From Promethearchaeota archaeon (GTDB taxonomy: Archaea; Asgardarchaeota; Thorarchaeia; Thorarchaeales; Thorarchaeaceae), in NCBI GenBank assembly GCA_048939765.1, contig JBHLPF010000054.1, positions 1 to 15,745 on the forward strand: a stretch of DNA of 15,745 nt, read 5' to 3'. The notes under the pieces are model-generated. The model ran no database searches, was not told where the DNA came from, and worked only from the letters and a program-made list of their open reading frames with translations. Positions 5,266 to 12,414 of this stretch are shown one piece after another (position 1 is the first letter of the stretch; each line of letters begins with the position of its first letter). The translations under genes were made by a program, and so were the position numbers.

Positions 5266-5670
5266 ATGGGAGAAACATTCAAGCTCTACCTCCACGAGAT
5301 TCAACCGAGTCAACTCTATATCAGCCAGGCAAAGCTAGATGCGGTCATCAATGGGAGGAACAGGGGAAACTTGGCCATGTATGCGCCAATCCCGATCAAG
5401 GAGCTAAATGGGGAGCTTGTGTCTACAGATGGACACACACGAGGAATAGCGTGGCTACTTGAAGGCTATGAAGAAGCAGAGGTTGAATGGGAAACAGTAG
5501 AGATGGACTGGGAGGAATATGCGGTCTATGTCCAATGGTGCAAAGATGAGGGAGTGTTTTCCATAGAGGACCTCAAGAATCGCATCATTAGTCACGACGA
5601 TTACAAGGTACTTTGGTATGAGCGATGCAAAGCATTCCAAGATGAATGGGCCTTGAAAAAGCAAGACTAG
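5266..5670 (+). CDS. Small stand-alone ParB/sulfiredoxin-like domain protein
   Basis: IQPSQ at the N-terminus, PIPIK and the TDGHTR signature of the ParB/Srx fold, followed by an acidic, Trp-rich C-terminus. No HTH. Confidence 0.65.
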   Translation: MGETFKLYLHEIQPSQLYISQAKLDAVINGRNRGNLAMYAPIPIKELNGELVSTDGHTRGIAWLLEGYEEAEVEWETVEMDWEEYAVYVQWCKDEGVFSIEDLKNRIISHDDYKVLWYERCKAFQDEWALKKQD

Positions 5671-5764: not shown

Positions 5765-6007
5765 ATGTCAAGTATTGAACCCGTTGAAACACTTGATTGC
5801 ATTGGACTGTTCTGTCCACAGCCGCTTTTCCAGACAAGAGAAGCAATAGACAGTATCGCAGCCGGCGAGGTCCTTGAACTGCTCGCCGATGATCCTGCGG
5901 CAGAGGAAGATATCAAACGATTCTGTAAGAGAACTGGGCATGAACTCCTCAGTTTCGAGAGACTGGAGGACGGTACACAAAGATTCCTGATCAGAAGAAA
6001 GGAGTGA
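5765..6007 (+). CDS. tusA: TusA/SirA-family sulfur carrier protein
   Basis: LDCIGLFCPQP (CPxP persulfide Cys), GEVLELLADDPAA..DI..FC...GH, final RFLIRR strand. ATG 5765 chosen because the GTG at 5753 lies inside the RBS. Confidence 0.92.
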   Translation: MSSIEPVETLDCIGLFCPQPLFQTREAIDSIAAGEVLELLADDPAAEEDIKRFCKRTGHELLSFERLEDGTQRFLIRRKE

Positions 6008-6014
6008 CTCAATC

Positions 6015-6368
6015 ATGAGCAGTATACTTTACGTGCAGACCAGCGACGACCCGGAGAGACAGTATTCACCCCTTGTCCTCGCTCAGAGCGCAAAGGCGAT
6101 GGATATCGAAGCGGCGGTATATTATCTCGGCCAAGGCCTGAGGATACTCCGGCCGGGTGCAGCTGACAAGATACAGGTTGGCAGCTTTCCAAGTGTCGCT
6201 GAAATGCTTAGGAAGACAATGGAGATGGGAATTAAGGTCTATGTGTGTGAAGCCTCAAAACAGATGCTCGGATGGGAAAAGGTAGAGCTAGTAGAGGGGT
6301 GCAAAATAGTTGGTGCGGCAACACTCAACGACTTAGTCCTAGAGCACGATGCCACAATGTGGTTCTAG
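6015..6368 (+). CDS. DsrE/DsrF-like sulfur-relay protein
   Basis: 117 aa with an A..A.AMD..A.VYY.G.G pattern, GIKVYVCEAS (conserved Cys) and VGAATL..L..E.D...F at the C-terminus. Starts 7 nt after tusA. Confidence 0.85.
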   Translation: MSSILYVQTSDDPERQYSPLVLAQSAKAMDIEAAVYYLGQGLRILRPGAADKIQVGSFPSVAEMLRKTMEMGIKVYVCEASKQMLGWEKVELVEGCKIVGAATLNDLVLEHDATMWF

Positions 6369-6378
6369 GTGAAAGCGA

Positions 6379-7557
6379 GTGGGCGACATAAGAGAGGTGT
6401 ATCTGGACTACCAAAGCTCGAAGCCTGTAGATCCGCGTGTCATTGAGGGCATGCTACCTTATTTCCATGAGCGCTTTGGTAATGCTTCAGCTCTTCACCG
6501 TGTGGGGGATGTAGCCACTGAGGCTCTTGAAGAGAGTAGACGGGTTATTGCGGATTACATCAATGCCGACTATGATGAGATCATCTTCACATCTGGTGCA
6601 ACAGAGTCGAACAACATGGCCCTAATAGGCTATGCCATGAAGAACAAGAGTAAAGGAAACCACGTAATCATTTCAGAGGTTGAACATATTTCTATTAGTA
6701 ACATAGGTAAGTACCTAGAGCGCCAGGGATTCGAGGTCTCAAAGGTGCCTGTGGATATGTATGGGCGAGTGCCATTGAAGAAATTGGAACGCAGAATAAG
6801 AGATGATACAATACTCATTTCAATTCAATATGCCAGCAATGAGATTGGTACGATTCAGCCAATCCAGGAAATTGGAAAATTGGCTGAAAAGAAGGGAATT
6901 GCATTTCACACCGATGCGGTAGCAGCTCAAGGATTAGTGCCAATTGACGTGAAGAGAGACAATATTCACCTCATGTCCCTGTCATCGAATGACTTCTATG
7001 GCCCCAGAGGAATAGGGGTACTGTTCATGAAGAAGAGATACAGAGTCAATCCCATTTTGATTGGAGGCGGACAGGAAAGAGGGTTGAGGTCAGGGACCGA
7101 GGATGTTGCAGGAATCGTTGGCATGAGACTTGCCATCGAAATAATGAAAGAAGAGATGCCAGACGAAGTCAAGCGGCTCCAGGGATATCGTGACCGCTTG
7201 ATTGACACAATACTGGATGAGGTCCCAGATAGCCATCTGAATGGTCACCCGACAGATAGACTCGCAAGCAATGCCCATTTCAGATTCGATGGAGTGGAAG
7301 GCGAATCGTTACTCTTGTCATTCAAGGACAAAGGAATTGCTGTGTCTACGGGCTCAGCCTGCACTTCCAAGACGCTTGCCCCATCAGCAACTCTTATTGC
7401 AACTGGGCTTATTCACGAAGAAGCACATGGATCACTACAGCTTACACCTGGAAGATTCAACACTGATGATGACATTGACAGAGTCCTCGAAGTAACTCCA
7501 GAGGTACTCATGCGAATTCGAGGTATGTCTCCAATCTATAAGCCAAAGGCGATGTGA
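6379..7557 (+). CDS. iscS: IscS/NifS class-I cysteine desulfurase homolog lacking the PLP lysine (Archaeoglobus-type)
   Basis: YLDY...P.D, FGN.S..H, IIFTSGATESNN, EH, NEIGTIQPI, HTDA, GGGQERGLRSGT, STGSACTS (Cys328 intact). The PLP-Lys motif reads SSNDFYGPRG. GTG start with an AGGTGA RBS overlapping the dsrE stop. Confidence 0.92.
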   Translation: MGDIREVYLDYQSSKPVDPRVIEGMLPYFHERFGNASALHRVGDVATEALEESRRVIADYINADYDEIIFTSGATESNNMALIGYAMKNKSKGNHVIISEVEHISISNIGKYLERQGFEVSKVPVDMYGRVPLKKLERRIRDDTILISIQYASNEIGTIQPIQEIGKLAEKKGIAFHTDAVAAQGLVPIDVKRDNIHLMSLSSNDFYGPRGIGVLFMKKRYRVNPILIGGGQERGLRSGTEDVAGIVGMRLAIEIMKEEMPDEVKRLQGYRDRLIDTILDEVPDSHLNGHPTDRLASNAHFRFDGVEGESLLLSFKDKGIAVSTGSACTSKTLAPSATLIATGLIHEEAHGSLQLTPGRFNTDDDIDRVLEVTPEVLMRIRGMSPIYKPKAM

Positions 7558-7563
7558 TGAAGA

Positions 7564-8346
7564 ATGAAGTCTACTCAATACAGTGAAAAGGTACTCGAGC
7601 ACTTTCGCAATCCACGAAATGTCGGTGTATTGGAAGGAGATGACGTAGCGAGCGGTCGTGTGGGAAATCCCACCTGCGGAGACCTGATGGAGGTTTTCAT
7701 CAAGGTCGAGGATGATAGAATAGTCGATGCGAAGTTCAGGACGTTCGGATGTGGTTCGGCGATTGCCACAAGTAGCATGACCACAGAGATGGTGAAAGGG
7801 ATGACACTCGACGAAGCCATGCATGTCACTAGAGAAGACGTCGCTGAAGAATTGGATGGTCTGCCCCCCATCAAGATGCACTGCTCTAATCTTGCTGCGG
7901 ATGCGCTTCATGAAGCCATCAAAGCCTATCGTATAAGGGAGAATCCCGATGAGGCAGCAGCAAAGGAACCCAAGTATGAGCAGCCGGCTTGTGCGATAAT
8001 CGGGCAGGACGAATTCCTTGATAAGGGGGTCTATCTCGATGTGGATGATCTCGAGGACTTCGCCGATCAAAGGGTGCTAGTCCTCCATAGCGGTGACGAA
8101 TCAATTGAGGCAGCTCTTGAACTCACAGCACAAACAGATCGTGTGGTCCTGTTGACTCAAGAGAAAGAAGTTGTCACCAATGACACACTACGGGAGGAAC
8201 TTGAAGCCTCCAGTGTGAAAGTAATCACTGAGTCACGGCTACTGGAAATTCGAGGCGAGTTTGAAGTAGAGAAGGTACTCGTTCATAATCTCGATGAGGA
8301 TGAGAAGTACGAACTGTTCGTGGATGCCGTTGTACTTATCGAGTAG
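7564..8346 (+). CDS. iscU: IscU/NifU Fe-S scaffold fused to a degenerate TrxR/FNR-type NADPH-binding domain
   Basis: aa 1-125: YSEKVLEHFRNPRNVG, GNPTCGD, FGCGSAIA, LPPIKMHCS (all three Cys plus Asp and His). aa ~146-260: GQDEFLDKGV...RVLVLHSGDESIEAALEL...VVLL...LEIRGE..VEKVLV.N......ELFVDAVVL resembles the TrxR-family NADPH domain. Confidence 0.9.
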   Translation: MKSTQYSEKVLEHFRNPRNVGVLEGDDVASGRVGNPTCGDLMEVFIKVEDDRIVDAKFRTFGCGSAIATSSMTTEMVKGMTLDEAMHVTREDVAEELDGLPPIKMHCSNLAADALHEAIKAYRIRENPDEAAAKEPKYEQPACAIIGQDEFLDKGVYLDVDDLEDFADQRVLVLHSGDESIEAALELTAQTDRVVLLTQEKEVVTNDTLREELEASSVKVITESRLLEIRGEFEVEKVLVHNLDEDEKYELFVDAVVLIE

Positions 8347-8395: not shown

Positions 8396-8854
8396 ATGCG
8401 GACTGTGAGAAAAGCCACAAGTTCTGACAAAGATCTCCTTGTCAATCTATTCATTTCCGAAGTAGAAGACAAGAAAGACCTCGCTGAAGCTTTTGCCACC
8501 GATCTACTAAGATTTCAGACCATTCTCAGCCTTGATGACGACAAAATTGTAGGCACAGTGAGCTGGGATGTTAGGGGTGGCCTTGATGATGGCGTTGTTG
8601 AGTTGATTGGGCTTGGAGTGAACCCTGATTATAGAAGAAAAGGCGTTGCAAGAGAACTTGTCCAAACACTGATCCATGATGTATCAAAGCACTACTCAGA
8701 ACAGGGCCACAAGCTGCGAGTTATCTACCTCTTCATGGAGAAGAGCAATGAGGGAGGAAGAGCGTTCTATGAGTCTGTTGGGTTCAAGGAGGTTGCTGAT
8801 GTTCCAGACCTCTATCCACACGATGATGCTGCTATATGGACTATGCATCTATGA
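8396..8854 (+). CDS. GNAT-family N-acetyltransferase (RimI-like)
   Basis: VRKAT..D start, LGVNPDYRRKGVARELV acetyl-CoA motif A, N.GGRAFYESVGF motif B. Confidence 0.88.
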   Translation: MRTVRKATSSDKDLLVNLFISEVEDKKDLAEAFATDLLRFQTILSLDDDKIVGTVSWDVRGGLDDGVVELIGLGVNPDYRRKGVARELVQTLIHDVSKHYSEQGHKLRVIYLFMEKSNEGGRAFYESVGFKEVADVPDLYPHDDAAIWTMHL

Positions 8855-10917
8855 GGGAAAGAATTGTGGTGTATTTAGAGAGAGGCTTCCCTAGTGAGGC
8901 GATCGATGAGATTGCGTGGAGTGAAAGCAACTCGAGGAAGCCGATATACCATATGCACAAATGGTTTGCTCGAAGAGTAGGTAGCACCTTCAGAAGCATA
9001 ATCCTAAGCCTCTTCCTGGACGAGAATCCAATGACGCGATTCTACGAAGAAGTCGTATTGAAGAACGCTGACGGCGAAATCCCGATTATATTGGATCCAT
9101 TCATGGGGGGTGGGACCACCATTGTTGAAGGGCATCGTCTCGGGTGCAGGACCATCGGTGTGGATATCAATCCCATGGCCTGGTTCATTACGAAGAAGGA
9201 GTTGGAGGCTGTTGACGTCACTCAATTGGAGGACGAATTCCAGATAATTAGAGAAGCCGTTGGGTCAAAGATCCTTTCTCTCTACAGGACGATGTGTCCT
9301 GAGGGACATGAAGCAGACACAATGTATACGTTCTGGGTAAGAAGTGTAAAATGCCAGTCTTGTGACTTTGAAGTTCCTCTCTTCAAATCCTTCATCATTG
9401 CGAAACCCAAGGACAAGAGTGTAGTCTATTTCTGCCCATCTTGCAATGAGATCACTGTAGATGGACCCCTGTGCCACTGTGGAATGGACCTGACTAATCC
9501 ATATGCCACAAACAAGAGCTACCGTTGTCCAAATTGCCATCATACAGGGGATTTGACAGAAGCATGGTTGGCGGAGGATAGCCCTCCCCGGGAGAGGCCA
9601 TATGCACTCGAGTTCCACTGTTGTAAATGTGGGAGAGGGTACAAGACGCCAGAGGATCTAGACCTCAAGAGGATAGATGATGCTGAGAGGGAGTATAGTC
9701 AAAGAAAAGGGAGGCTAAGGGGCATGTTGATTCCGAACGACATGGTTCGCTGGAGCAATATGGCTACAATGCGTCCACGTTGTAATGTGTATAGAAGATA
9801 CAGTGACTTCTTCAATTCGCGTCAATTGCTTGCCCTTTCCTTGATTCTCGAACAGATTCTGCAAGTTCACGACAGAACAATCAGAGAATTCCTGCTTCTC
9901 ACATTTTCAGACACTCTCAATGCCAACAACATGTTTTGTATCTACAATGTTCATGCTTCGAAACTTGAGCCTCTTTTCGGCGGACACTATTTTTCCCCGC
10001 CCACTACTCCAGTTGAAAACAATGTATGGGGTACAAGGGTTGGTCGGGGAAGCTTCAGTAGATATGTAACCAAGGGAATACGGGCTCTAAGGTATCAGAA
10101 GAGTCCCTACGAGATTCGTTTTGCTGACGGGCACTCTGGAAAGAGCGAGCCTACAAGAATTAGGGAGAAAGTCAGTGTAGGAGATAAGATAGAAGCTCAG
10201 TTTGTAGAAAGATTCCAAGACCTGCAGTTTCGGAAGAGTTCCTTGCTGAAATGTCAATCATCAGAGAACTTGGACTTTATCCCAGACAAAGCTGTCGATG
10301 CGGTAGTCACTGATCCTCCCTACTTCGACAATATCATGTACTCCGAGCTTTCAGAGTTCTTCTATGTATGGTTGCGCCCGCAATTGCATGAAGCATATCC
10401 CTCGATATTCGGTCGAGAATCCAGCAACAGTGCAGATGAAATCCTCGTGTACAATAAGACTGGCAAGGATGCCGACTTCTATATCGAATCCATGACACGG
10501 GTTTATAGTGAACTCCATAGAGTGATGAAGGACAATGCCAAACTCGTGTTCGTCTTCCAGCATAAACGACTCAAAGCGTGGTCCGCCATATTGCAGATTC
10601 TTGTGAATGCAAGATTCTTTGTGGAAGCGGTATATCCGACGCATGGCGAAACGCCCAGCGGTGTTAGAGCATATGGCATCAACCGCAATGCGCTTCTCGT
10701 ATGCAGAAAGGTGGCTGACTCAAAAGCTAAAACAGAGCGCGCTCCCAGAGATGTGGCAGTGAAGAATATTGGCGAAGTGAGCCGTTCATCCCTCATGCTT
10801 CACCTTGGAAAGGCATTAGCTGCCTACTCGCAATACCCAAGCGTACATGAGGGGAGAATAACTGATGAGTGCATCAAAGACTTTGAATCGTTTGTCAACG
10901 ATAAATTGATGCAATGA
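8851..10917 (+). CDS. Adenine-specific DNA methyltransferase with Zn-ribbon insert (COG1743/DUF1156-like)
   Basis: LERGFP...I..E, MHKWFARR, motif I LDPFMGGGT..VE, several CxxC/CxxH pairs (CPEGH, CQSC, CPSC, CHC, CPNC, CCKC), F..RQLLAL, motif IV TDPPYFDNIMYSELSEFFYVWLR. ATG 8851 overlaps the GNAT stop (ATGA). Confidence 0.85.
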   Translation: MRERIVVYLERGFPSEAIDEIAWSESNSRKPIYHMHKWFARRVGSTFRSIILSLFLDENPMTRFYEEVVLKNADGEIPIILDPFMGGGTTIVEGHRLGCRTIGVDINPMAWFITKKELEAVDVTQLEDEFQIIREAVGSKILSLYRTMCPEGHEADTMYTFWVRSVKCQSCDFEVPLFKSFIIAKPKDKSVVYFCPSCNEITVDGPLCHCGMDLTNPYATNKSYRCPNCHHTGDLTEAWLAEDSPPRERPYALEFHCCKCGRGYKTPEDLDLKRIDDAEREYSQRKGRLRGMLIPNDMVRWSNMATMRPRCNVYRRYSDFFNSRQLLALSLILEQILQVHDRTIREFLLLTFSDTLNANNMFCIYNVHASKLEPLFGGHYFSPPTTPVENNVWGTRVGRGSFSRYVTKGIRALRYQKSPYEIRFADGHSGKSEPTRIREKVSVGDKIEAQFVERFQDLQFRKSSLLKCQSSENLDFIPDKAVDAVVTDPPYFDNIMYSELSEFFYVWLRPQLHEAYPSIFGRESSNSADEILVYNKTGKDADFYIESMTRVYSELHRVMKDNAKLVFVFQHKRLKAWSAILQILVNARFFVEAVYPTHGETPSGVRAYGINRNALLVCRKVADSKAKTERAPRDVAVKNIGEVSRSSLMLHLGKALAAYSQYPSVHEGRITDECIKDFESFVNDKLMQ

Positions 10918-10922
10918 CATTT

Positions 10923-12170
10923 TCATGCTATCTGATAGAGCCTAAACCCCAAGGGCAAACCATCCTCTGAATCCGAAACTATTCTGTCAATAACCCTTCG
11001 TATTCGTTCGGCACCTATTTCCGATACGGTGGCAAATCCAACAACATACGCACGAGATGATTCTGGCACGAGTTCTGGCAATTGCACCATGATGAATCTC
11101 CTGTTTCCGCCATCTGCCTGATTCTGTTCTAGCACAGCATGGGCAGTCGTACAGGATCCAGCAAAGAAATCCAGCACTATATCGTTCCGATCCGGCTCAG
11201 TACCAATATGCAATATCCGCTTCATGAGTCTAAGTGGCTTCGGGGTTTCAAAAACACCCACGTCGCCAAATATCTGGCGGATTGCTCTTCGAGCCTCTTG
11301 ATTATCCCCGACCTCACTCCGGTGCCATATGGTGCAAGGAGTTAGGCCTTGCTTGACTTCAGACAAGAATCGCTTGAGCCGCGGAACATTACTTCCCTCA
11401 GGGCCAAACCATATGCGATTGTCTGTCACCAGACTATTGAAGGAATCAAGACTCATGCCCCAACATCGTCCTCGCGGCGGACATACCTCTCGTCCGGATG
11501 GCGTTCTTATCACATAATCGTAGTCTTTGTTGTACGTTTTGACAGTCAAATCGCTTGATGTCCAGGGTCCTCTGGAGTCGCCATCAAGATTCTTGTAGCG
11601 AGAGTCCGTTTCATCGGTTCTTGGAAGCAGGCGAGGTCTCCACAATTCTTTGTTCCTCGCATAAACAAGAATGTAATCATGGTTATCTGAAAACCATCGA
11701 GCATCATTTTGGGGAGAGAACTTCTTTTCCCAGATTATTGTAGCCACGAAATTATCCTCCCCAAATACTTCATTCATAACCATTCGTAGATTATGAACCT
11801 CATTGTCATCAATTGACACAAAGATTACTCCGTCTTCACGCAGGAGTTCTCTTGACAATAGGAGGCGTGGGAAAATCATAGAAAGCCAATCAGCGTGAGT
11901 TTCGGCAAGCCTGTCACTATAGACGAAGCTGCCGCCTTTGTTATAGGGAGGGTCGATATAGATCACTTTGACCAATTCACAGTGGCTTTCGCGCAGAATC
12001 TTGAGAGCCTCCAGATTATCACCTTCAATGAACATGTTCTCAGTGGTTTCAGGAGAAATGGACCGCTCTTCCAGAAGCTTCAATGAATGAGGTGAACGCC
12101 CAGCTGCAGCAATCCTAGCGTCCTCTTTGCCAGGCCATGTAAATCTGCATTCAATGGAATCATTCTTCAA
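10923..12170 (-). CDS. Type III Mod-like (beta-class N6/N4) DNA methyltransferase, compact with no C-terminal domain
   Basis: FTWPGK, NMFIEGDNLEALKIL, IYIDPPYN, H.DWLSMIFPRL, DGVIFVSIDDNE, TRD (YKNLDGDSRGPW...PPRGRCW), FETPKP, VLDFFAGSCTTAHAV, RRFIMVQLPE, GFRLYQI. Probable TTG start at 12170 with GGTGG just upstream. Confidence 0.85.
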   Translation of the reverse strand: MKNDSIECRFTWPGKEDARIAAAGRSPHSLKLLEERSISPETTENMFIEGDNLEALKILRESHCELVKVIYIDPPYNKGGSFVYSDRLAETHADWLSMIFPRLLLSRELLREDGVIFVSIDDNEVHNLRMVMNEVFGEDNFVATIIWEKKFSPQNDARWFSDNHDYILVYARNKELWRPRLLPRTDETDSRYKNLDGDSRGPWTSSDLTVKTYNKDYDYVIRTPSGREVCPPRGRCWGMSLDSFNSLVTDNRIWFGPEGSNVPRLKRFLSEVKQGLTPCTIWHRSEVGDNQEARRAIRQIFGDVGVFETPKPLRLMKRILHIGTEPDRNDIVLDFFAGSCTTAHAVLEQNQADGGNRRFIMVQLPELVPESSRAYVVGFATVSEIGAERIRRVIDRIVSDSEDGLPLGFRLYQIA

Positions 12171-12237
12171 GACATGTCCACCAGGCAATAAGATGTGAAG
12201 CAAGAAACGCTCTTGGGGACTCCATATTTCAGTATTT

Positions 12238-12414
12238 TCAACGACTCTCAAGTTGATTGTGGGCAACACCAATATTCTTCTTAGGCCGGGAGAGATGCTA
12301 TCTAATTGTTCGGGATGGAATGCCCAACACCTCACCTAGATGCTCCGCTGATGCTTTTGCGCCAACCATGTCGAGGGTCCCAATAATGAACAGATCTTTC
12401 TTGTCTAACGCCAT
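12238..12414 (-). pseudogene. Lrp/AsnC-like HTH regulator remnant interrupted by an in-frame TAG
   Basis: Manual translation from ATG 12414: MALDKKDLFIIGTLDMVGAKASAEHLGEVLGIPSRTIR*HLSRPKKNIGVAHNQLESR*. It matches the Lrp/AsnC pattern LD..D..I...L......S..ELA..LG.S..T.R.R...L, with TAG at 12300-12298. Confidence 0.6.

Follow-up and report, generated by a model that had tools for sequence, protein, structure and literature searches.

An IscU scaffold protein of Asgard archaea carries a vestigial NAD(P)H-binding domain of the thioredoxin reductase fold

Introduction

IscU is the central iron-sulfur (Fe-S) scaffold, and in the thorarchaeial genus considered here it is apparently the only recognisable one. 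The stretch of DNA that we analysed, referred to as the window, comprises 15,745 nucleotides (nt) of contig JBHLPF010000054.1 of a Promethearchaeota archaeon of the Thorarchaeia, and it encodes an IscU that does not end with the scaffold domain but continues into a second one. What is this second domain, where did it come from, and what could it do on a scaffold protein? An earlier reading, made from the letters of the DNA and their translations (the sequence-only reading), had described the protein as IscU fused to an orphan, degenerate NADPH-binding domain of the thioredoxin reductase (TrxR)/ferredoxin-NADP+ reductase (FNR) family. Here we report that the feature is real, widely conserved and apparently undescribed, that it has a clear evolutionary explanation, and that a mechanism can be inferred for it.

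The protein of 260 amino acids (aa) is encoded by the open reading frame (ORF) 7564..8346 (+), in which nt 7990 is the start of the Cys143 codon and nt 8346 the last base of the stop codon. The parts of the gene, with the evidence for each, are as follows.

7564..8346, + strand: whole gene, IscU/MisU scaffold plus C-terminal relic reductase domain, 260 aa (ORF; 249 homologues of the C-terminal part)
7564..7941, + strand: IscU (NifU_N) domain, aa 1-126 (Pfam NifU_N, TIGR03419, solved IscU chains)
7942..7992, + strand: flexible linker, aa 127-143, with the extra Cys143 (7990-7992) at its end (low predicted local distance difference test score, pLDDT; looser ratio of nonsynonymous to synonymous substitution, dN/dS)
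7993..8343, + strand: relic NAD(P)H-type domain of the TrxR fold, aa 144-260, 117 aa (profile against the PDB, Foldseek, dN/dS, tree)
8086..8103, + strand: HSGDES, a degenerate GxGxxA dinucleotide-binding loop (alignment table and motif counts)
8155..8163, + strand: TQE at the HRR site, the 2'-phosphate site of NADPH-dependent TrxR (motif counts)
8239..8337, + strand: beta-meander, aa 226-258 (..IRGEFEVEKV..NLDEDEKYELFVDAVV..), the most conserved part (invariant and near-invariant columns)
8293-8304, + strand: acidic hairpin loop DEDE within the beta-meander (counts across truncated, full and standalone forms)

Results

A complete IscU followed by a reductase-type fold

The N-terminal part matches NifU_N (PF01592) at aa 5-126 with E 2.6e-49 and 167 bits against a Pfam cut-off of 22, and it scores 191.6 bits with TIGR03419, over the NCBIfam cut-off of 187.9. 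Among solved IscU chains it recovers 7c8m at E 1.2e-52 and 4eb5_C at E 2e-45. Besides an N-terminal Tyr6, the domain contains Cys38, Asp40, Cys63, His106, Cys107 and the motif LPPIK (aa 100-104), all of which except the Tyr were scored across 37 orthologues and found invariant. The window protein is a complete IscU-family scaffold, with the three ligand Cys, the Asp, the His and the LPPVK-like motif all in place.

The C-terminal part is matched weakly in Pfam by Pyr_redox_3, Pyr_redox and Pyr_redox_2, at aa 138-257 and through the profile middles only (positions 135-228 of 305 and 141-232 of 291). PF13738 scores 24-26.5 against a gathering cut-off of 30 and PF07992 16-18 against 26.1, while PF00070, with a cut-off of 22, gives 21 for the whole protein and 22.8 for the isolated piece. 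The NCBIfam profile TRX_reduct (TIGR01292) matches aa 144-257 with its positions 116-231 of 300, at 50 bits against a cut-off of 343. The C-terminal pieces of 26 orthologues were aligned (alignment A1) and used as a search profile. Against the PDB, this profile matches best the CxxC-less T. thermophilus protein 2zbw_A (E 2.3e-13) over residues 131-247, its NADPH domain, followed by several TrxRs and then by B. subtilis YumC (3lzw, E 5.5e-9). The isolated piece was modelled with AlphaFold at pLDDT 80, with the first 18 residues disordered, and Foldseek aligned the model with 2zbw, 3lzw, 3f8d and others over about 120 columns (E 1.9e-12, TM-score 0.78-0.82, root-mean-square deviation 1.2-2.0 Å). 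The ESM-Atlas language-model features of the domain agree with Pyr_redox. We conclude that aa 144-260 are what is left of the NAD(P)H-binding domain of an FNR-like flavoprotein of the TrxR fold without CxxC. The profile search and Foldseek thus corroborate the sequence-only reading in its family assignment, including the expected match of the C-terminus to a TrxR NADPH domain rather than to an unrelated fold, and in its YumC-like, CxxC-less FNR flavour, as the best solved relatives are 2ZBW and YumC (3LZW).

No FAD (flavin adenine dinucleotide) domain sequence, neither an N-terminal GxGxxG nor a C-terminal GD segment, was found before or after the relic in the 260-aa protein, and no redox-active CxxC is present, GVYLDVDD being aligned at the place of GVSYCATCDG in TrxR. 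Both absences had been called correctly from the letters, as had HSG in place of the GGG loop and TQE in place of HRR. As the FAD domain, the glycine loop and the 2'-phosphate site are all lost, the short form found in Thorarchaeia and Lokiarchaeia cannot itself be a reductase. Judged by motifs and profiles, the window protein is no TrxR, FNR or NifU; the defining features of each were looked for and are absent.

The relic belongs to a lineage of full-length IscU-reductase fusions

In an exhaustive profile search of 1.8 billion representatives, the best complete TrxR-like match was P0154 (443 aa), which is itself fused to IscU: an IscU domain is followed by a whole TrxR-like protein with GxGxxG, GGGNSA, HRKDELRA and the GD motif, and without CxxC. 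More than 100 clusters consist of such proteins of about 444 aa, NifU_N plus a complete Pyr_redox_2 (e.g. P0154, P0303, P0363, P0382). The named ones come from Methanoperedens, Methanosarcinales/ANME-2, Methanosarcinaceae and Jordarchaeaceae (Jordarchaeia), and the Asgard family G117 has a full-length fusion of 449 aa. The window protein is 67-71% identical to the full fusions in the IscU domain and 36-39% in the NADPH domain.

We built a careful maximum-likelihood tree of the NADPH domain from 69 rows, including 33 truncated domains and 23 standalone TrxR/FNR, and left it unrooted. The 33 truncated domains form one clade with support 100/100, and a 98/94 branch separates truncated and full fusions together from the 23 standalone enzymes. 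The sole row on the fused side that is labelled standalone, P0174, begins MHC and is probably a cut fusion. Gene contexts, which were collected from genome searches and a metagenome scan, agree with this grouping. The truncated fusion is nearly always found in the order TusA-DsrE-IscS-IscU* (the asterisk marks the fused form), which is kept in Thorarchaeia, Lokiarchaeia and other families, and the full fusions stand at the same place, in DsrE-IscS-IscU-TrxR in Methanoperedens-type contigs and in TusA-IscS-orf-IscU-TrxR in G117. At the level of phylogeny and synteny, the Asgard short form and the full-length IscU-reductase fusions are one fused lineage. The domain is thus not the orphan that it had been taken for, since full-length fusions occupy the same operon position and group with the truncated forms in the tree.

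In the TrxR fold, the FAD domain is built from segments that flank the NADPH domain on both sides. The short form is therefore most simply read as a full fusion minus both segments, and we consider it most likely that the form of Thorarchaeia and Lokiarchaeia arose in this way. Methanoperedens also has reductases that stand alone (P0357-P0359, 322-324 aa) and share 78-89% identity with the reductase part of the fusions. P0358 is labelled partial, and P0359 (324 aa), from a contig of 3.3 Mb, has the look of a true split form.

The truncated fusion is widespread

The C-terminal part, used as a query, recovered 249 proteins. Almost all have 257-260 aa and carry NifU_N, and those with names are from Thorarchaeota or Sifarchaeia. 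The genome scan gave 31 loci, almost all named Thorarchaeota. At E <= 1e-8 the A1 profile finds a match in 274 of 400 Asgard genomes, a part of these being weaker, standalone TrxR-like matches. Open frames of 257-290 aa that match strongly, at E 1e-37 to 1e-68, are found in 76 of the 85 genomes of the window's own family and in 115 of the 135 of family f22, and also in the Asgard families f21, f17-f19 and f23. In total, most of the Thorarchaeia and Lokiarchaeia genomes searched carry the truncated fusion. Orthologues are present in the cultured Candidatus Prometheoarchaeum syntrophicum (QEE15270.1, database name 'scaffold protein') and Candidatus Lokiarchaeum ossiferum (UYP44078.1). The latter bears on annotation, as it is mislabelled 'Ferredoxin--NADP reductase' and has no FAD domain.

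The possibility that the fusion is an assembly chimera, or a decaying, functionless pseudogene, draws on the missing catalytic motifs and on nothing further. An artefact of assembly was ruled out by the recurrence of the architecture in independent assemblies that number in the hundreds, closed genomes from cultured strains among them; it is far from unique to this assembly. A pseudogene is likewise opposed by dN/dS values of 0.04-0.09, and we consider the chance of either negligible. As the domain is kept in hundreds of genomes, its conservation is far beyond chance.

The sequence-only reading had also found the architecture unfamiliar. This holds for the literature searched, where we found no published description of the relic domain or of the full fusion. 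It does not hold for the public databases, where the architecture is already present from hundreds of genomes under the name 'NifU scaffold' or, wrongly, 'ferredoxin-NADP reductase'.

Several unusual forms were seen in these searches. P0447 (231 aa) is a shorter truncated fusion that lacks the first hairpin of the relic, and P0121 (160 aa), which may be an artefact, consists of the relic and an Asp/Glu tail of about 55 aa. A metagenome-assembled genome (MAG) labelled 'uncultured Syntrophus sp.' (CAZKHU010000059.1, locus L030) has the operon TusA-DsrE-IscS-IscU*, with 48% identity in the relic. Among the top profile matches, apparent cases of the relic on its own or joined to other proteins were rejected, as they look like fragments, frameshifts or single-contig chimeras.

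Binding motifs are lost while an acidic hairpin is kept

For quantification, motifs were counted on unique domain sequences, namely 178 truncated domains, 112 full fusions and 60 standalone enzymes. The loop GxGxx[AGS] is present in none of the truncated domains (0/178), in 110/112 full fusions and in 56/60 standalone enzymes, and it is the first Gly of GxGxxA that is absent in all 178 truncated domains. At the 2'-phosphate columns, [HYCL]R is found in 0/178, 60/112 and 40/60, respectively. The acidic hairpin loop has the opposite distribution, with at least three of its four residues acidic in 173/178 truncated domains and 94/112 full fusions and in only 6/60 standalone enzymes. By these counts the acidic hairpin loop is a signature of the fused lineage, irrespective of the flavin state.

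These losses bear on whether the relic might still bind a nucleotide (NAD(P)H, ADP or similar), with which it would sense the redox or energy state for the scaffold or pass a hydride to it directly. Several features would suit a nucleotide binder: a Rossmann beta-alpha-beta core that the model predicts to be intact, a loop in which the central Gly and the Asp/Ser/Ala positions after it are mostly retained, and language-model features that resemble Pyr_redox. However, the first Gly of the loop is gone throughout, the central Gly in a few domains and the HRR site in all; there is no flavin domain to take a hydride, and the Pfam scores lie below or at the gathering cut-offs. We regard a nucleotide-binding relic as very improbable.

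The relic is also markedly acidic. It contains 32 Asp/Glu and 10 Lys/Arg in 117 aa, in line with an earlier hand count of about 30 and 10, and its acidic excess per residue is 0.188, compared with a mean of 0.026 and a 99th percentile of 0.116 for whole proteins of the genome. In E. coli, CyaY, IscX and ferredoxin dock on a basic patch of IscS, and the relic could by analogy be a frataxin/CyaY-like module, an acidic domain that binds Fe2+ for the IscU site or docks on the basic patch of IscS. An Asp/Glu content far over the proteome background, a DEDE hairpin kept in nearly all truncated domains and in most full fusions, and an operon without a frataxin, IscX or ferredoxin gene would all be consistent with such a module. 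Against it, Foldseek places the domain with the Rossmann-type TrxR fold and not with the alpha-beta sandwich of frataxin, no metal-binding motif was identified in it, and no general acidic surface is conserved, as the net charge runs from -24 to +3 across lineages (-17 to -24 in most proteins of Thorarchaeia, -5 to -14 in most other lineages and +3 in clade P0122). We consider a frataxin-like role unlikely.

Although its catalytic motifs have gone, the relic is well conserved. Alignment A1 has 27 invariant columns in the relic, and the last 33 residues (8239-8337) are nearly invariant. Purifying selection on the relic is strong, with a dN/dS of 0.04-0.09; the values are 0.025-0.063 in IscU and 0.11-0.43 in the linker.

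An extra Cys at the domain hinge

The one extra Cys that had been noticed in the linker is confirmed as Cys143. A linker Cys is present in 141 of 153 unique truncated fusions, plus 3 that were misparsed by the script. The Promethearchaeaceae-type proteins have no linker Cys and carry one in the short C-terminal tail instead. The two cultured Lokiarchaeia orthologues, L071:2602-3441 (+) (UYP44078.1) and L070:2593-3417 (+) (QEE15270.1), also have their Cys in the C-terminal tail and none in the linker. In TrxR structures the NADPH domain is entered and left through a pair of adjacent crossover strands, so that a linker Cys and a C-tail Cys would occupy the same place.

These observations bear on a purely structural explanation, in which the relic would give IscU stability, hold it as a dimer or protect the forming cluster, with no partner and with a Cys that has no chemical role. 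The strong conservation of the domain and the lack of an identified partner would fit such a role, and IscU dimerisation is needed for the chemistry that converts [2Fe-2S] to [4Fe-4S]. On the other hand, established structures of TrxR-type proteins show dimers formed via the FAD domains and not the NADPH domain, the AlphaFold model has no fixed packing of the relic on IscU, and the move of the Cys from linker to C-tail in one lineage argues that the Cys itself is selected. We consider a purely structural role unlikely.

The operon and candidate partners

The fused gene is the fourth gene of an operon, in which it is preceded by the following three.

5765..6007, + strand: TusA/SirA-family sulfur carrier, first operon gene (Pfam TusA, E 1.7e-25)
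6015..6368, + strand: DsrE-family sulfur-relay protein (Pfam DsrE, E 5.6e-17)
6379..7557, + strand: IscS/MisS, 392 aa (Aminotran_5, E 2.3e-70)

The intergenic gaps at TusA and DsrE are 7-10 nt. TusA is kept in loci of the Thorarchaeia and Lokiarchaeia type and beside the G117 full fusion, and DsrE is kept upstream of IscS in Thorarchaeia, Lokiarchaeia and Methanoperedens-type loci. IscS has SSND (6982-6993) at the SGHK site, i.e. the lysine that binds pyridoxal phosphate (PLP) is replaced by Asp, while the mobile-loop Cys is retained (GSACT, 7351-7365). Its nearest solved chain is A. fulgidus IscS (4eb5_A, E 3.6e-132), which likewise has SSND, and by analogy the window IscS presumably lacks desulfurase activity. 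IscS and IscU are adjacent, without HscAB, Fdx or IscA, as in the minimal IscS-IscU (MIS) systems of the A. fulgidus type, and the TusA-DsrE-IscS-IscU operon contains no frataxin, IscX or ferredoxin gene. The idea that loss of the FAD domain tracks loss of the PLP lysine in IscS was ruled out, as SSND is present in all 64 IscS partners examined (53 beside truncated fusions, 8 beside full fusions and 3 unclassified).

Operon integrity varies to some extent. On the Thorarchaeota bin8 chromosome (CP070658.1, loci L007/L049) IscU* lies apart from IscS, TusA and DsrE, and at L010 IscS is 2.6 kb upstream of IscU*, indicating that the operon is occasionally broken up.

All statements of absence from genomes are bounded by the incompleteness of MAGs. 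In this genome, which is 88.5% complete, the fused gene is the only IscU and SufB/D (SUFBD_core; SufB/D, SmsB) was not found. The other two genomes of the genus with a completeness of at least 90% lack SufB/D as well (the three genomes of the genus without SufB/D span 88-92% completeness), whereas at family level it is present in 22 of 40 genomes of this completeness. It is possible that this genome encodes no Fe-S scaffold other than the fused IscU.

A possible partner for the relic is encoded elsewhere in the genome. Contig C34:10456-11412 (-), which corresponds to L037:1447-2382 (-), encodes a standalone TrxR-like flavoprotein that is complete, has no CxxC, contains GGGDTA and HRKDEFRA, and ends in KPYW. 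It is 46% identical to the reductase part of P0154. From its sequence, we consider this protein a candidate trans-acting partner of the relic. Its gene neighbours are a KamA-like radical-SAM gene and a gene for a flavodoxin-domain protein. A separate FAD-only protein that would complement the relic was also sought by tblastn of two full fusions against the whole genome and was rejected, as only complete TrxR-like genes were returned (C34, C80, C48 and others).

The other genes around the operon are listed here as observations. Upstream of TusA, at window 5266-5670 (+), lies an ORF of 134 aa with no Pfam match; it is kept there within the genus at 74-82% identity, and weaker conservation is seen in two other loci of Thorarchaeia. 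Directly downstream of IscU* is a GNAT acetyltransferase gene (window 8396-8854, +), which is there in most loci of Thorarchaeia (48-90% identity) and not in those of Lokiarchaeia. It is followed by two N6/N4 DNA-methylase-like genes arranged tail to tail, at window 8836-10917 (+) and 10923-12335 (-). The first of these (693 aa) overlaps the GNAT stop codon and has a weak DUF1156-like N-terminus and Cys-rich, zinc-ribbon-like stretches. The pair is possibly part of a restriction or defence locus.

Discussion

A proposed non-catalytic adaptor on the scaffold

Very likely, the relic is a non-catalytic but functional remnant of a reductase. As to its function, we favour a docking or cluster-handling adaptor over a binder of ligands or metal, and give this reading a probability of roughly 0.55. 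In the proposed mechanism, the relic would have been retained on the scaffold as a non-catalytic adaptor, and the acidic beta-hairpin with the meander (EVEKV...DEDExYEL) would be the contact surface for a partner that was formerly in cis. The Cys, placed on a flexible arm at the domain hinge, could contribute to the chemistry of sulfur or of the cluster at the IscU site, either as a fourth ligand or as a persulfide-resolving thiol. The first candidate for the partner would be an electron donor acting in trans, e.g. the C34 standalone TrxR-like FNR or a ferredoxin, and the lysine-less IscS would be the alternative; that the partner is specifically an electron donor is only a tentative suggestion.

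Several of our results weigh against this picture, either in its history or in its mechanism. First, the direction of change, FAD loss rather than gain, is drawn from the discontinuous topology of the FAD domain and from an unrooted tree. In the tree of the IscU domain the truncated forms are again one clade (SH-aLRT 88), but the order of truncated and full forms is not resolved there, and some plain ANME-2 IscUs nest within the full fusions. Second, the full-length AlphaFold model has a predicted template modelling score of 0.50 with no confident packing between IscU and the relic, and the linker is disordered (pLDDT <50 at aa 131-143), so that no contact surface can be assigned on the relic. 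Third, the central Gly of the old nucleotide loop is kept in 173 of the 178 truncated domains, which would allow for residual phosphate or nucleotide binding. Fourth, the strong overall acidity appears from the charges above to be a feature of Thorarchaeia only, which weakens a general acidic-surface model, and clade P0122 does without the extra Cys.

The full-length fusions suggest a wider, and doubtful, extension of the adaptor reading. According to a 2026 review, the electron donors of MIS systems are unknown (PMC13066941). If the IscU-TrxR-like fusions are read as a 'Rosetta stone', a CxxC-less, TrxR-fold, FNR-like flavoprotein might be the missing electron donor of the ancestral MIS system. 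The flavin part would now act in trans in Thorarchaeia and Lokiarchaeia, and the relic would be the docking handle that places a mobile Cys at the assembly site. The full scaffold-reductase fusions offer a concrete, testable candidate for the MIS electron donor. A conserved pseudo-reductase on the Fe-S scaffold across Thorarchaeia and Lokiarchaeia, including cultured relatives of the eukaryotic host lineage, is a piece of Asgard housekeeping biochemistry that is undescribed in the literature searched.

Comparison with known systems

NifU resembles the window protein in that an IscU scaffold is fused in cis to a redox-related module. However, the NifU profile TIGR02000 is matched only at positions 3-123 of 290 (147.5 bits against a cut-off of 273), and Pfam finds neither Fer2 nor the NifU C-terminal (Nfu) domain in the window protein. 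It thus lacks the [2Fe-2S] ferredoxin-like and Nfu domains of NifU, and the domain that it has in addition is of another fold and without cofactor-binding motifs.

The TrxR-type FNRs (T. thermophilus 2ZBW, B. subtilis YumC 3LZW, B. cereus FNR2 6GAS) are the solved proteins closest to the relic in both profile and fold, and of these 2ZBW and YumC are CxxC-less (GVYY..V type) like the window domain. While these enzymes are complete homodimers that bind FAD and NADPH, the window domain corresponds to their middle third only, with degenerate binding motifs. Degeneration of the NADPH site in a retained domain is also seen in the pyridine-nucleotide-independent TrxR-like flavoenzymes (ferredoxin- and F420-dependent TrxRs, DDOR). 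These keep FAD and remain redox enzymes, whereas the window protein has no FAD domain.

With A. fulgidus (IscS-IscU)2 (PDB 4EB5/4EB7), the window shares the Lys-to-Asp change in IscS (SSND), the loop Cys and a two-gene core without HscAB or ferredoxin. A. fulgidus IscS is inactive as a desulfurase and may provide the cluster with a ligand through a Cys (PMC7585200). The systems differ in that TusA and DsrE precede IscS in the window, and in that the solved A. fulgidus IscU chain has 153 aa and no reductase-type domain, while the window IscU adds 134 aa of linker and relic. In M. acetivorans, the isc1 cluster consists of MA0810 (SirA/TusA), MA0809 (DsrE), MA0808 (IscS1, lysine-less) and MA0807 (IscU1), and IscU1 at 24.2 kDa is about 10 kDa larger than IscU2 (13.9 kDa) and IscU3 (PMC7585200, which does not comment on the additional mass). 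The gene set and the lysine-less IscS are as in the window, and isc1 is probably of the same family as the window operon, a likeness that is based on gene set and IscU1 size.

By sequence, the closest relatives of the window protein are the uncharacterised full-length IscU-TrxR-like fusions. They retain both halves of the FAD domain (GxGxxG and the GD motif), GxGxxA and, in about half of them, the HR(K/R) site, none of which is present in the window protein. What they have in common with it is the IscU domain, the lineage of the NADPH domain, the acidic EDE hairpin and the operon position after a lysine-less IscS.

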